Shown here: positions 17,134 through 58,851 of the stretch, piece after piece
Layout of the letters: every line of letters begins with the position of its first letter
How positions within the stretch are numbered: position 1 is the stretch's first letter
Source: a virus
Taxonomy: Duplodnaviria; Heunggongvirae; Uroviricota; Caudoviricetes
Virus record (IMG/VR): IMGVR_UViG_2925450510_000002
DNA: 64,000 bases
Reading direction: 5' to 3' (one strand)
The notes under the pieces: generated by a model
Database searches by the model: none
What the model saw: the letters and a program-made list of their open reading frames with translations, nothing else
What the model was told of the DNA's origin: nothing
Program-made: the position numbers and the translations under genes

Positions 17134-18328
17134 GGAAGGTGCGAACAAGTTCCTGATATGAGATCATCATATTCATCCGGAGCGCATCCCAGAGGGACAT
17201 CATGAGCCATCAACTCACCTTCGCCGATAGTGAATTCAGCACTAAGCGCCGTCAGACCCAAAAGAGATTTTCCTCTCCCGCATGGAGCAGATTCTGCCAT
17301 GGCAAAACATGGTGGAAGTCATCGAGCCGTTTTATCCCAAGGCGGGCAATGGCCGACGGCCCTATCCGCTGGAGACCATGCTGCGTATTCACTGCATGCA
17401 GCATTGGTACAACCTGAGCGACGGTGCCATGGAAGATGCCCTGTACGAAATCGCCTCCATGCGCCTGTTTGCCCGATTATCCCTGGATAGCGCCCTGCCG
17501 GATCGCACCACCATCATGAATTTCCGCCACCTGCTCGAGCAGCATCAACTGGCCCGTCAATTGTTCAAGACCATCAATCGCTGGCTGGCCGAAGCAGGCG
17601 TCATGATGACCCAAGGCACTTTGGTGGATGCCACCATCATTGAGGCACCCAGCTCTACCAAGAACAAAGAGCAGCAACGCGATCCGGAGATGCATCAGAC
17701 CAAGAAAGGCAATCAGTGGCACTTTGGCATGAAGGCCCACATTGGTGTCGATGCCAAGAGTGGCCTGACCCACAGCCTAGTCACCACCGCGGCCAACGAG
17801 CATGACCTCAATCAGCTGGGTAATCTGCTTCATGGAGAGGAGCAATTTGTCTCAGCCGATGCCGGCTACCAAGGAGCGCCACAGCGCGAGGAGCTGGCCG
17901 AGGTGGATGTGGACTGGCTGATCGCCGAGCGTCCCGGCAAGGTAAAAACCTTGAAGCAGCATCCGCGCAAGAACAAAACGGCCATCAACATCGAATACAT
18001 GAAAGCCAGCATCCGTGCCAGGGTGGAGCACCCGTTTCGCATCATCAAGCGGCAGTTCGGCTTCGTGAAAGCCAGATACAAAGGGCTGCTGAAAAACGAT
18101 AACCAACTGGCGATGTTATTCACCCTGGCCAACCTGTTTCGGGTGGACCAAATGATACGTCAGTGGGAGAGATCTCAGTAAAAACCGGAAATAACGCCAG
18201 AAATGGTGGAAAAAATAGCCTAAATAGGCTGATTCGATGTGTTTGCGGGAAAAAAATCGGCCCAGATCCGCGAAATTTTAATCAGCGAGTCAGCTTGGGA
18301 AGAAATGACCTGCTTATTCGCACCTTCC
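17134..18328 (+). mobile_element. IS5-family insertion sequence (ISKpn26/IS5-like), copy 1, 1195 bp
   Basis: Ends GGAAGGTGCGAACAAG...CTTATTCGCACCTTCC. Internal InsH-like transposase. Flanks are CTAG (left) and TTAA (right). Confidence 0.9.
17202..18181 (+). pseudogene. IS5-family transposase with a 1-bp deletion frameshift near the 5' end
   Basis: Copy 1 reads GACCCAAAAGAGAT where copy 2 reads GACCCGAAAAGAGAT. This splits the ORF into 17202..17417 and 17282..18181. Confidence 0.8.
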
Positions 18329-19148
18329 TTAACAGCGTACTCCTGTCTACTTCATTTAAGTATTTAAATATACTACCTCTAATTATTAAAGATACAGGAG
18401 AATTTCCACAATAAACTAAATCGGCACCTGTTGGTTTCGCTAATTCTATTAATACATCAGCTGCTGATCCTGACTCGGGAAGTACACCAACAGGCCTCCC
18501 ACCTGAAAATGCAAGTATTTTACCTTCCAGCATGCTTAATTGGGGAAGCTCTTCAACATATGAATCAGGAACACGAAGGCTTCTTCGGAAATTGCTATCA
18601 ATCTTCTGATCAAGAATGGCATCACCAGCTTTCCAGGCATTAGTGTTGTCAACAATCTGCCTATCAACATAATTCTTCGTGGACGCATCCTGCGCCTGTG
18701 ACGGGTCACGCAGGTTACGAATGCGGTTGTTGAGTGCGTCGTAATAGTTCGCGAGCCACGATGGCTTCCTGAGAGATAGACCGGACCACCACCCATATGC
18801 CTGCTGCACCAGCATGGTCAACTTATCGAGAGCATCTTCGTGGATCTCAGGGAAAAAGCCACCCTGGTTCCTGATGCTGGCTTCCTGCGTAACCGGCGTG
18901 CTGCGCTCGATAGAGATTTTGTAGCCAGCTGGCAGCGCTGATGTCAGAACCACCTTCCCCCCGTTGTAACGGTTTACTCCGGTAACCGTGTAGTCGGTAC
19001 CGAGTGTTAGCGTCACGATGCTTTCGGAGGTATCCAGGGTCTGCACCAGCAGGTGGCTTTTATCCAGGATGCGGAACGTGAAATCGTATTGGGTAGTGGC
19101 GCCGTTTCCGGTGTACTCGTTACGGCTTACCTGCGTTGAAACTGTCAT
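18282..19148 (-). CDS. tail fibre / tailspike adaptor (T7 gp17 N-terminal-like), 3' end fused into the IS
   Basis: The N-terminal 120 aa follow the gp17 adaptor-domain pattern. The last 16 codons (18282..18328) are encoded by IS sequence. Confidence 0.6.
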   Translation of the reverse strand: MTVSTQVSRNEYTGNGATTQYDFTFRILDKSHLLVQTLDTSESIVTLTLGTDYTVTGVNRYNGGKVVLTSALPAGYKISIERSTPVTQEASIRNQGGFFPEIHEDALDKLTMLVQQAYGWWSGLSLRKPSWLANYYDALNNRIRNLRDPSQAQDASTKNYVDRQIVDNTNAWKAGDAILDQKIDSNFRRSLRVPDSYVEELPQLSMLEGKILAFSGGRPVGVLPESGSAADVLIELAKPTGADLVYCGNSPVSLIIRGSIFKYLNEVDRSTLLRKVRISRSFLPKLTR

Positions 19149-19334
19149 AGTCTGCTCCAGTGGTCAGCGCTGGCGCGCGTGCATAGAAGCATTCTATTAC
19201 CCATCAAACCATATATGAATAAAACAGATCGAAACGAGCAAAAACATTACCATTAAGGTAAATAAAACCTTCTGGAAAACCCTGTTACCTTTTGATATAT
19301 GTATATATATACAGTATTTATCGGAGTAATCCTA

Positions 19335-19595
19335 ATGCCAGAGCGGTACCAGTATCCTGTCGACGAAGGTTTTGCGGATCGTATTCACACCCCGGAAGGG
19401 GTCAGATCCCTGGTTGTAAAATCACAGCTGATGGAGTTGCTCAGGGAGATGGAGCGAGACGGCCACGATGTCAGCGGTGCGGCGGCGGAACTGGTGGCAC
19501 TGGTTAACTATGTGACGAGCTCGCAGTTGTCGATGCGGGAGCTGCAAACACACCTGGATTTCTGCGCAATGCAGTTGCGGCAGCAACTCAGATAG
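19335..19595 (+). CDS. small protein paralogous to the C-terminal domain of the downstream antirepressor
   Basis: ERYQYPVDEGFADRIHTPEGVRSLVVKSQLMELLREMERDGHDVSGAAAE aligns with RRYQDHIHSPDGLRELAKSSMVMKLLRELDADGHDVSGAAAE of 19910..20599. GGAG SD. Confidence 0.5.
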   Translation: MPERYQYPVDEGFADRIHTPEGVRSLVVKSQLMELLREMERDGHDVSGAAAELVALVNYVTSSQLSMRELQTHLDFCAMQLRQQLR

Positions 19596-19733
19596 TGATT
19601 GAAATCAAAATAAAGATGGGTTTATCATTACCAAAATGGTAAATTTACAACCCATTTTCCTTGTGCCATAGTGATCGGGCATCGGCAAAATCCGGTGCCG
19701 GGATTGGCGTCCCGGATAACTAAACGGCGCACA

Positions 19734-56836: not shown

Positions 56837-57236
56837 CGTCTTTTCCTCCCGGGATTAAATCGCGCGGATTGTCAGAGCGGTGATACAGCCATATTCCAAC
56901 CCGCACAGCGACAATCGCCGCAACGAACGCGCCGGCGGAGTAGACAATGCCGCGCTCGAACGAGTCCTGTGTGATGGTGGGGATCATGCTGGCAACGCCG
57001 ATAAGGATTGATGCTGTGGGTTTGTAGAAGAGAAGACCGCAGAGAAAGCTGAGTAGTGCCAGGAGAACGCGGCGCTTGACCGGATACTCAACTGCAGAGG
57101 TAACAAAAATTACCGCCCCGGCCAGCGATCCCAGCGCCACTTCAGGAGGTACGCCGGCGATAACTGCCGCCAGCGCACCGTAGCTAAGCCCCTGATTTAT
57201 TGTATCAGCGGTTAGCGATGCAGACATGATGACCAC
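56823..57236 (-). CDS. holin-like membrane protein
   Basis: 137 aa with 3-4 TM segments. First gene of the lysis cassette. Confidence 0.5.
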   Translation of the reverse strand: MVIMSASLTADTINQGLSYGALAAVIAGVPPEVALGSLAGAVIFVTSAVEYPVKRRVLLALLSFLCGLLFYKPTASILIGVASMIPTITQDSFERGIVYSAGAFVAAIVAVRVGIWLYHRSDNPRDLIPGGKDDDRP

Positions 57237-57489
57237 CGTTTACTATGCATGATGAACCTCCTTAGTTTGGTAAGTTCATCATACACAATAAACCAAATAC
57301 GGATAGATGGTAATTTACTAATTAATTATTTCACTAGGTCCTTGATTCGCTGCATCTTGCACAGATAGTCCTTGCTCATAAAATTCATACCATGCCATTT
57401 TGTAGGGTGCACATTTTCCATTATGTGCCAGAATAATACATAATTCTTGATACCATGCATCAAATGCATCATTTTCACTTTGTTCCATA

Positions 57490-57655
57490 TTATGCCCTTA
57501 GTTTTGCACTGATAACTCTGCTGGCAGAGTCTATCGCTGTTAATGTTACGGTTAAGGTCTTACCATCAGAAGAGATAGCAAAAGAAAGCGAAACCCCGGT
57601 TGGACTAGCAGAGGTAATGCCCCACGTTCCACCACTAACAGTGGCAAAAGTTCTA
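57490..57655 (-). pseudogene. orphan C-terminal fragment, probably the displaced 3' end of the phage B tail fibre gene
   Basis: The open frame runs from inside IS copy 2 out to a stop at 57490. Encodes a beta-rich ...GVSLSFAISSDGKTLTVTLTAIDSASRVISAKLRA tail. Confidence 0.35.
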
Positions 57656-58851
57656 AGAAGGTGCGAACAAGTTCCTGATATGAGATCATCATATTCATCC
57701 GGAGCGCATCCCAGAGGGACATCATGAGCCATCAACTCACCTTCGCCGATAGTGAATTCAGCACTAAGCGCCGTCAGACCCGAAAAGAGATTTTCCTCTC
57801 CCGCATGGAGCAGATTCTGCCATGGCAAAACATGGTGGAAGTCATCGAGCCGTTTTATCCCAAGGCGGGCAATGGCCGACGGCCCTATCCGCTGGAGACC
57901 ATGCTGCGTATTCACTGCATGCAGCATTGGTACAACCTGAGCGACGGTGCCATGGAAGATGCCCTGTACGAAATCGCCTCCATGCGCCTGTTTGCCCGAT
58001 TATCCCTGGATAGCGCCCTGCCGGATCGCACCACCATCATGAATTTCCGCCACCTGCTCGAGCAGCATCAACTGGCCCGTCAATTGTTCAAGACCATCAA
58101 TCGCTGGCTGGCCGAAGCAGGCGTCATGATGACCCAAGGCACTTTGGTGGATGCCACCATCATTGAGGCACCCAGCTCTACCAAGAACAAAGAGCAGCAA
58201 CGCGATCCGGAGATGCATCAGACCAAGAAAGGCAATCAGTGGCACTTTGGCATGAAGGCCCACATTGGTGTCGATGCCAAGAGTGGCCTGACCCACAGCC
58301 TAGTCACCACCGCGGCCAACGAGCATGACCTCAATCAGCTGGGTAATCTGCTTCATGGAGAGGAGCAATTTGTCTCAGCCGATGCCGGCTACCAAGGAGC
58401 GCCACAGCGCGAGGAGCTGGCCGAGGTGGATGTGGACTGGCTGATCGCCGAGCGTCCCGGCAAGGTAAAAACCTTGAAGCAGCATCCGCGCAAGAACAAA
58501 ACGGCCATCAACATCGAATACATGAAAGCCAGCATCCGTGCCAGGGTGGAGCACCCGTTTCGCATCATCAAGCGGCAGTTCGGCTTCGTGAAAGCCAGAT
58601 ACAAAGGGCTGCTGAAAAACGATAACCAACTGGCGATGTTATTCACCCTGGCCAACCTGTTTCGGGTGGACCAAATGATACGTCAGTGGGAGAGATCTCA
58701 GTAAAAACCGGAAATAACGCCAGAAATGGTGGAAAAAATAGCCTAAATAGGCTGATTCGATGTGTTTGCGGGAAAAAAATCGGCCCAGATCCGCGAAATT
58801 TTAATCAGCGAGTCAGCTTGGGAAGAAATGACCTGCTTATTCGCACCTTCC
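57656..58851 (+). mobile_element. IS5-family insertion sequence, copy 2, intact, direct orientation relative to copy 1
   Basis: Near-identical to copy 1 but with an intact transposase. First base reads A rather than G. Flanks are CTAA (left) and C+CTAG (right). Confidence 0.9.
57724..58704 (+). CDS. IS5-family DDE transposase (InsH-like), intact 326 aa
   Basis: [34 protein letters not shown]..., full length. Confidence 0.9.

Follow-up and report, generated by a model that had tools for sequence, protein, structure and literature searches.

The stretch of DNA analysed here (the window; 64,000 nucleotides, IMG/VR virus record IMGVR_UViG_2925450510_000002) contains two phage genomes and two copies of an insertion sequence (IS) of the IS5 family. 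Along the window, the left part of a lambdoid Klebsiella prophage of clonal group 258 (CG258), here called phage A, is followed by CTAG, an IS copy, a second phage (phage B), another IS copy, CTAG and the right part of phage A, with both IS copies in direct orientation. The segment bracketed by the IS copies comprises 39,328 bp of an epsilon15-like podophage, which is circularly permuted and opened in its tailspike gene (Table 1). The window shows 100% identity to Klebsiella pneumoniae CP027053.1 (locus L012) across the 20,246 bp compared. An earlier reading of the window, made from its letters only (the original prediction), was partly confirmed in its set of observations: the structure stands, the size of the interrupted open reading frame (ORF) had to be corrected, and phage B turned out to be incomplete.

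The two IS copies, predicted to be nearly identical and in the same orientation, are indeed internally only one G apart. This G is gone after position 17259 in copy 1 and its loss shifts the frame of the transposase, a deletion that is common only to CP027053.1, while the 326-amino-acid (aa) transposase ORF of copy 2 contains PF05598 and PF01609 (DDE_Tnp_1). In the single-IS allele described below the element measures 1196 bp, which, like the 326-aa transposase of copy 2, agrees with the size of IS5-family elements; its terminal inverted repeats (GGAAGGTGCGAA...) and the 4-bp YTAR duplication are also those of this family. Its identity is 98.5-98.9% to insH-type IS5 copies in Escherichia coli phage records and 92% to classical IS5 (P1, lambda KH100). 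We name it ISKpn26-like, since a length of 1196 bp and a Klebsiella host presumably fit ISKpn26.

The flanks of each copy do not match, as had been predicted: they read CTAG/IS/TTAA for copy 1 and CTAA/IS/(C)CTAG for copy 2, so that the two outer flanks are both CTAG. In the window, copy 2 starts with GAAGG instead of GGAAGG, and before the right CTAG there is an additional C (58852). Both junctions of copy 2 are canonical (CTAA/GGAAGG...CCTTCC/CTAG) in UWXA01 (L040), a sister assembly. The single-base oddities at 17259-17260, 57656-57657 and 58852 are private to this assembly and occur in none of the sister assemblies or single-IS alleles; they probably represent polishing errors or else arose very recently. 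The two at copy 2, which compensate each other, are probably an artefact of assembly or polishing and tell nothing about the mechanism. The possibility that the IS had mutated from G to A at the first base of copy 2 was rejected, because the A at 57656 is the native tailspike base (L016-L019 and L042 match 100% up to this position).

The IS-B-IS block interrupts a small ORF of phage A (ORF X). Joining 16916..17133 to 58857..58953 yields an ORF of 104 aa with 0 mismatches over 315 nt to an uninterrupted Klebsiella gene (L026). An in-frame ORF of 107 aa had been foreseen upon removal of IS-B-IS and one CTAG; the ORF was recovered, and its length is 104 aa when counted from the ATG. In many Klebsiella genomes the uninterrupted ORF X reads ...GCTTTCTAGTGTGG..., and the reconstructed phage A is 100% identical to four loci with the empty allele, over up to 11 kb. 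The left 17.1 kb of the window (1-17133) are 100% identical to the prophage records ST11-VIM1phi8.3, ST512-KPC3phi13.5 and ST340-VIM1phi10.1, and by Pfam they encode terminase, holin, lysozyme, Rz, Q antiterminator, primase, DEAD-box helicase, a cro-like protein and an S24 repressor. The phage A integrase begins about 180 bp past the window end. ORF X is also intact in a collinear, 94% identical prophage of E. coli UMNK88, where the homologue of the phage A repressor is annotated as a LexA family protein. This prophage of a porcine enterotoxigenic strain (L001, NC_017641.1, 3.199-3.202 Mb) shows 89-94% nucleotide identity to the immunity and early-left region of phage A, a likeness that indicates a recent module exchange between genera.

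Phage B carries attP and not the two att sites of an integrated prophage. Homology to attR junctions of ordinary prophages (L016-L019) stops at 55312 and homology to attL junctions (L035, L036) stops at 55322, which defines the attP core as TCCCACTCAAT. Both att arms are contiguous around this core, in line with the predicted internal integrase gene beside an intact attP. In an Int-mediated prophage, attL and attR would form the boundaries and int would lie close to one of them; here int is internal and attP is intact. Because B carries attP and not attL/attR, it almost certainly entered as a circle and not via its own integrase, to judge from the arrangement of its att sequences. Moreover, direct IS copies stand at both junctions and the insert is permuted and opened at the IS, as is expected of an inserted circular replicon. 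In phage BUCT711 the lysis genes, the tailspike gene and the remaining genome form one contiguous stretch, which supports the circular permutation of B in the window.

The prediction of a whole phage B genome could not be upheld, since 1275 bp of the tailspike gene are gone, plus 751 bp of the antirepressor gene. The tailspike of an ordinary prophage has 753 aa (L017 6791-9052), and positions 7611-8885 of L017 (1275 bp, 425 codons) have no counterpart between the inner junctions of the window. With 425 of 753 codons gone and the two remnants mutually out of frame, the window does not contain a complete genome with a functional tailspike. At site 1 the intact gene of L017 reads ...ACGCTGTTAAATGTAG..., and the homologues P0002 and P0003 continue with ...RSTLLNVVGAEV... 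where the IS starts in the window. On the gene strand, the intact tailspike sequence is ...CTG TTAA ATG... and ...CTG TTAG AAC... at the two sites. The inner flanks TTAA and CTAA are thus two native YTAR sites 1275 bp apart and not the two copies of one duplication that would be expected in a captured replicon. Since both breakpoints are native YTAR sites abutting intact IS termini, they represent two separate transposase-defined positions, and the idea that the tailspike sequence was lost by random illegitimate deletion was set aside. Single insertions would be expected to give CCAACTACATTTAA/GGAAGGTGCG at site 1, with the tailspike middle kept, and CCTTCC/CTAACAGAAGCC at site 2; scans of viral contigs for these simple-insertion junctions and for the copy 1/B junction returned no matches.

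The 751-bp antirepressor deletion was recognized by comparison with UWXA01, UWWU01 and CANTRV01, which keep the gene, and is common only to CP027053.1; no obvious direct repeat was seen at the breakpoints 21529/21530. In the arc/antirepressor control region there is, in addition, an 83-bp perfect tandem duplication (21991-22156) that repeats the 5' end of a minus-strand, Arc-like ORF of 50 aa. The duplication is also present in other IS-B-IS assemblies (L002-L004); the ordinary B loci fetched do not cover this region.

Table 1. Features of the window, with phage A, the IS copies and junction sites first and the genes of phage B after them
Feature	Position	Strand	Remark
Phage A left part	1..17133	.	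lambdoid Klebsiella CG258 prophage; Pfam labels
Phage A repressor, 222 aa, HTH_3 + Peptidase_S24	16077..16745	+	Pfam; directly upstream of ORF X
ORF X, N-terminal part	16916..17133	+	ends in left CTAG copy, 17130-17133
IS copy 1 (IS5 family, ISKpn26-like)	17134..18328	+	1195 bp, transposase frameshifted
TTAA, native target site 1 in tailspike gene	18329..18332	.	abuts right end of IS copy 1
CTAA, native target site 2 (TTAG on gene strand)	57653..57656	.	abuts left end of IS copy 2
IS copy 2	57657..58851 (start 57656/57657)	+	intact 326-aa transposase at 57724-58704
Right CTAG copy (58853-58856), then ORF X C-terminal part (58857-58953)	58853..58953	+	
Phage A right arm, early-left genes	58857..64000	+	62-aa, 121-aa, ParE-like, Band_7, pRha, others
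Phage B	18329..57656	-	39,328 bp, epsilon15-like temperate podophage
Tailspike (tail fibre), N-terminal 273 codons	18330..19148	-	
Antirepressor remnant (P22_AR_N)	21446..21955	-	751 bp gone between 21529 and 21530
Virion and packaging module	23195..40856	-	PHROG matches
Internal virion proteins (n=3)	28797-29357, 26083-28785, 23195-26083	-	PHROG
Tail tubular B	29822-32299	-	PHROG
Tail tubular A	32299-32922	-	PHROG
Major capsid	33632-34639	-	PHROG
Scaffold/protease	34652-35380	-	PHROG
T7-type portal	35634-37313	-	PHROG
terL	38791-40266	-	PHROG
terS	40263-40856	-	PHROG
Lambda-P-like replication gene	45282-46067	-	Pfam of L042
DnaT-like replication gene	46064-46831	-	Pfam of L042
Phage B cro-like gene	47187-47420	-	Pfam of L042
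Phage B HTH repressor	47574-48155	+	Pfam of L042
PD-(D/E)XK exonuclease (DUF3799)	49775-50596	+	
RecT	50593-51474	+	
AlpA-like gene	within early-left block 49775..53661	+	
MT-A70 methylase	53068-53661	+	
Phage B tyrosine integrase, 416 aa	53866..55116	-	Arm-DNA-bind_3, Phage_int_M, Phage_integrase
ATACCGT arm-type repeats	55158-55192 and 55382-55402	.	either side of attP core
attP core	55312..55322	.	overlap of attR-side and attL-side homology
Phage B lysis cassette	55433..57488	-	
Rz	55433-55915	-	
GH19 endolysin	55912-56541	-	
Holins (n=2)	56531-56836, 56823-57236	-	
56-aa ORF	57318-57488	-	
Tailspike, last 54 codons (RTFATVSGG...KLRA, stop)	57490..57654	-	identical to L017 tailspike C-terminus

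Phage B has 95-99% nucleotide identity over most of its length to the Klebsiella phages ST512-KPC3phi13.3, Kp4865-1 and vB_KpnP_BUCT711, and more distant nucleotide matches to epsilon15, phiV10 and SPN1S. Its collinear module of terS, terL, portal, capsid, tail tubular A and B and internal virion genes is that of an epsilon15-like podophage. The Pfam labels of the non-virion genes were taken from L042, which is 100% identical to window positions 43068-57656; together with the PHROG matches they bear out the predicted gene set of a second phage between the ISs, with virion, packaging, lysis, replication, immunity, RecT/exonuclease and integrase genes.

Outside of this structure, the B endolysin and methylase genes are found in ordinary prophages in 1200+ index blocks, in which int abuts guaA and Rz abuts a sulfatase gene. 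The original prediction had allowed for B as an independent prophage or as a phage-plasmid: the first form was found, integrated by Int, but the second is unsupported, since the B-like DNA in IncF plasmids is, in the case of pKN-LS6, Int-integrated with attL and attR. This 246-kb IncFIB/IncFII conjugative plasmid (L043/L044, NC_021654.1, 177.8-217.3 kb) holds a complete B-like prophage with 99% identity over about 20 kb and both att sites, which adjoins the parAB/repB region and was integrated by its own integrase. Matches to phage B were present in 489 plasmid records, and therefore the B phage type also travels on conjugative plasmids. In the genome LT216436.1, which has the single-IS allele (L019, L024, L037, L038), B-like prophages end with unexpected host flanks: int lies beside an alcohol dehydrogenase gene or guaA, the lysis genes lie beside a sulfatase or an aldolase gene, and one copy joins holin genes to early genes. 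This suggests that two related prophages recombined and a chromosomal inversion or deletion resulted, or that there are assembly problems. The early region of B in this genome (L037) has 0 mismatches to the window over 10.7 kb.

Three alleles were found at the same site on an identical phage A backbone: empty (very common), with a single IS (uncommon) and with IS-B-IS (rare). Both the intact phage A ORF and the single IS at this site, which related genomes had been predicted to show, are therefore on record. As to the empty allele, the 62-aa neighbour gene of phage A occurs in 21,109 index blocks; the IS was absent at 10 out of the 10 places listed, eight of them with the exact empty-site string and two in divergent phage A variants with an intact 104-aa ORF. 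For the single-IS allele, an 81-aa fusion protein of ORF X and IS at the left junction occurs in 115 index blocks, a protein that is present in single-IS and IS-B-IS alleles alike. L007, L008 and L009 contain a single 1196-bp IS with a perfect CTAG duplication (CTAG/GGAAGGTGCG...CGCACCTTCC/CTAG) at the same site and in the same orientation, followed by the right arm of phage A, while L011 (UWXA01) and L012 (CP027053.1) have the same left junction but phage B beyond the IS. The 288-aa fusion protein of tailspike and IS, which is diagnostic for the B junction, was found on only nine contigs, all of which place it within phage A or end in the IS. Among the nine are contigs of complete-chromosome size from three separate assemblies (CP027053.1, UWXA01 and UWWU01), all with the A-IS-B junction, and also short-read contigs; in the short-read contigs L004-L006 the tailspike runs into the IS at the same base. 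The B-IS-A junction was read in UWXA01 besides the window. For the two ORFs that cross the left-hand junction of copy 2, one of 145 aa (minus strand) and one of 90 aa (plus strand), no record was found, and this junction was reached via the MT-A70 gene instead. Phage A yielded no single-nucleotide polymorphisms usable for ordering the alleles, the backbones of all three being identical.

Some sister genomes show further changes at the locus. UWWU01 (L002, UWWU01000001.1) has lost window positions 14284-17133 beside copy 1, with CTAT as flank; these 2.85 kb comprise ORF X, the repressor, cro and part of the helicase gene. In UGML01 (L010, UGML01000004.1) 286 bp (58857-59142) are lost to the right of the single IS, and the flank is TTAG. 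The IS at L010/L015 (UGML01000004.1, CBCSJR010000018.1) differs from the window IS at 10 positions, and there a truncated primase gene marks the point at which the left arm of phage A passes into Mu-like baseplate genes. The ends of the 5.5-Mb contig UWXA01000001.1 (positions 1-14,589 and about 5.49-5.51 Mb; loci L040 and L042) duplicate each other as an untrimmed circular overlap; one of the duplicated ends is full of frameshifting indels, and the contig start is the exact B/IS copy 2 junction.

The most plausible account of these data, which we hold with modest confidence, is the capture of circular B at a resident IS by homologous recombination between ISs, combined with a separate IS-mediated deletion in the tailspike gene. 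Prophage A of a K. pneumoniae CG258 lineage would already have carried the ISKpn26-like IS, inserted at a CTAG of a small and non-essential ORF that lies directly downstream of its repressor gene. Phage B, which is normally integrated by Int between guaA and the sulfatase gene, would have been present as a circle, either excised or freshly injected, whose tailspike gene contained another copy of this IS. By recombination of the RecA type between the 1.2-kb ISs of the circle and of prophage A, the whole circle might then have been inserted, and the product would be A-left-CTAG-IS-B-IS-CTAG-A-right, with B permuted, opened at the IS site and in possession of its attP. In a separate step, which may have preceded or followed the capture, the 1275 bp from one YTAR site of the tailspike gene to the other would have been lost through an IS-mediated event, either a second insertion 1.28 kb off followed by IS-IS recombination or an adjacent deletion. 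This extra event is needed because the inner flanks do not represent one native site but two, with 1275 bp between them. The original prediction, in which phage A first acquired an IS and a circular B carrying the IS then integrated by homologous recombination, is thus partly supported: the single-IS precursor and the circular entry stand, but B is not the contiguous whole that it presupposed.

The structure, the alleles, attP, both native target sites and the deletion in the tailspike gene are seen in the sequences themselves; which event came first, and that homologous recombination was at work, we infer from the alleles and from the behaviour of this IS in the same clone. A recipient allele exists, with a single IS at the same site (L007-L009) whose duplication is kept on the outer flanks of the window structure. 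Homologous recombination of one ISKpn26 copy with another removed 110 kb of a plasmid in a patient isolate of sequence type (ST) 258 (He et al., 2016, PMC5142620), and this documented reshaping of a replicon of this clone within one patient favours the same process here. Moreover, the chromosomal ISs in genomes of the clone, among them ISKpn26 with up to 17 copies, mostly have target duplications, which the authors attributed to simple and not to replicative transposition (He et al., 2015, PMC4471558); this, too, favours homologous recombination. A homology of 1.2 kb is ample for RecA, and B itself encodes a pair of RecT and exonuclease. The IS-adjacent deletions at the same locus in sister genomes (L002, L010) provide a precedent for the step of adjacent deletion.

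Several points weigh against this account. B with an IS was not found outside prophage A, every resolved context of the tailspike/IS junction being inside phage A. The two IS copies have no informative polymorphism that would reveal a crossover, and the mismatch of the inner flanks requires at least one additional event to be assumed. Furthermore, the polarity from single IS to IS-B-IS is suggested by allele frequencies and mechanism and not by strain phylogeny.

A replicative cointegration appears rather unlikely, although it deserves the most serious consideration among the alternatives. Here, the IS of phage A would have transposed into the tailspike gene of circular B and fused the two replicons, and one copy would later have caused an adjacent deletion of 1275 bp up to the second YTAR site. 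The final structure would be the same, including the preserved outer CTAG duplication, and the position of the inner junctions exactly at native YTAR sites points to transposase action over random breakage. The IS-adjacent deletions with TTAG or CTAT flanks in the sister genomes fit this course as well, and IS903, another member of the IS5 family, reportedly makes cointegrates at low frequency. However, right after a cointegration the same 4 bp would be expected at the two inner junctions, together with a B free of interruptions; neither was observed, and no intermediate was encountered in the viral contig scans. The duplications generally retained by the chromosomal ISs of the clone, which were taken as a sign of simple insertion (PMC4471558), also argue against it.

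Less probable still is a composite transposon, in which a circular or tandem B was hit by two direct ISs 1.28 kb apart in the tailspike gene and the unit of IS, 39.3 kb and IS moved to the CTAG of a phage A with the empty allele, later IS-IS loop-out giving rise to the single-IS allele. Such a scheme would explain in one go the perfect outer 4-bp duplication and the two different inner native sites; the empty allele that it starts from is abundant, and IS-IS deletion is documented for the same IS (PMC5142620). Yet the single-IS allele is about 10 times commoner than IS-B-IS (115 blocks versus nine contigs), and the single-IS genome LT216436.1 (L019, L024, L037, L038) still has B-like prophages with intact tailspikes at ordinary att sites. 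Within the limited collections searched, the IS-B-IS unit was met at no other site, and the tailspike/IS junction occurred only inside phage A or at contig ends. Finally, the frequency with which composite elements transpose drops steeply as they get longer, which would make movement of a 41.7-kb unit very rare.

That the multicopy IS caused a misjoining of contigs from two separate prophages seems very improbable. The 1-bp oddities at copy 2 in this assembly and the untrimmed overlapping ends of one sister contig might be taken as signs of such an assembly chimera, but the same A-IS-B junction occurs in the three separate multi-megabase assemblies, the B-IS-A junction occurs in one besides the window, and the short-read contigs L004-L006 pass from tailspike into IS at the same base. 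In addition, an IS misjoin cannot yield attP in place of attL/attR. A single mosaic prophage with two independent IS insertions and no second phage, conceivable only in that mosaicism is common in Klebsiella prophages, is refuted by the empty allele, in which phage A is uninterrupted and identical in many genomes, and by the separate existence of B at its own attB with its own att sites, neither IS moreover having its own matching duplication.

Integration of circular replicons via shared ISs is well known from high frequency of recombination (Hfr) strains, in which F integrates via IS2, IS3 or gamma-delta, and from the plasmid prophages P1 and P7, of which P1 integrates via IS1. In those systems as in the capture favoured here, a circular replicon enters by IS-IS recombination, comes to lie permuted between direct ISs and leaves only by the reverse recombination. 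In contrast to them, the circle in the window is a phage that encodes an integrase and has a working attP/attB route of its own, the site of landing lies within another prophage, and the captured genome is also short of 1.28 kb at the junction. The mechanism is thus textbook Hfr-type integration mediated by an IS; what is new is the capture of an integrase-proficient temperate phage and a landing pad inside another prophage. The ISKpn26 rearrangements in ST258 (PMC5142620, PMC4471558) share the IS, the clone and the reshaping of replicons by recombination of direct copies, but they are plasmid deletions and no capture of a phage genome was described. A literature search by accession and for ISKpn26 with prophage or cointegrate found no description of the IS-B-IS structure; two papers, on a different prophage (PMC6908951) and on P1 with Tn9 (PMC10999674), were not relevant to it. 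With the epsilon15-like (Uetakevirus-type) podophages, B has in common the gene order, integrase, attP, lysis cassette and virion module. Whereas ST512-KPC3phi13.3, Kp4865-1 and BUCT711 are free genomes or prophages bounded by attL/attR with full-length tailspikes, B is bounded by ISs, keeps attP and has a truncated tailspike gene. The composite transposons Tn9 and Tn10 resemble the structure in that two ISs flank a cargo with the target duplication outside; here, however, there is no evidence of movement as a unit, and the duplication is explained by the pre-existing single IS.

Some consequences for the two phages can be predicted. Because neither attL nor attR is present, B should be unable to excise by its own integrase; it would leave only by IS-IS recombination, which would restore the single-IS allele. 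B would also be without a functional tailspike and, in this strain, without its antirepressor. Since the early-left genes and integrase of phage A have been moved 41.7 kb from the rest, an excised A would measure about 80 kb and should not fit the capsid. One event would thus have disabled two prophages, A being split by 41.7 kb and B lacking excision att sites and tailspike, so that prophage genes become fixed in the chromosome. The series of empty, single-IS and IS-phage-IS alleles in the hospital clone CG258 would mean that a resident IS can serve as a landing pad for a phage genome, bypassing the phage integrase. The structure is of value as a documented natural example and a possible model for non-excisable prophages, and offers no new principle.

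The repressor, replication and packaging genes of B look intact, and it is conceivable from their sequence that B amplifies in place and packages outward on induction. That B is a locked-in and yet inducible prophage, or alternatively that IS-B-IS is a mobile 41.7-kb composite transposon carrying a phage genome, is a speculation to which we give little credence. If B were locked in and inducible, outward packaging from the packaging site of B would carry phage A genes and the adjoining chromosome along by lateral transduction, a second B-like prophage providing the tailspike, and the integrase could recombine the internal attP with the chromosomal attB and thereby invert or delete a large segment. 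Prophage predictors would call one 80-kb prophage at this locus or misplace its ends.

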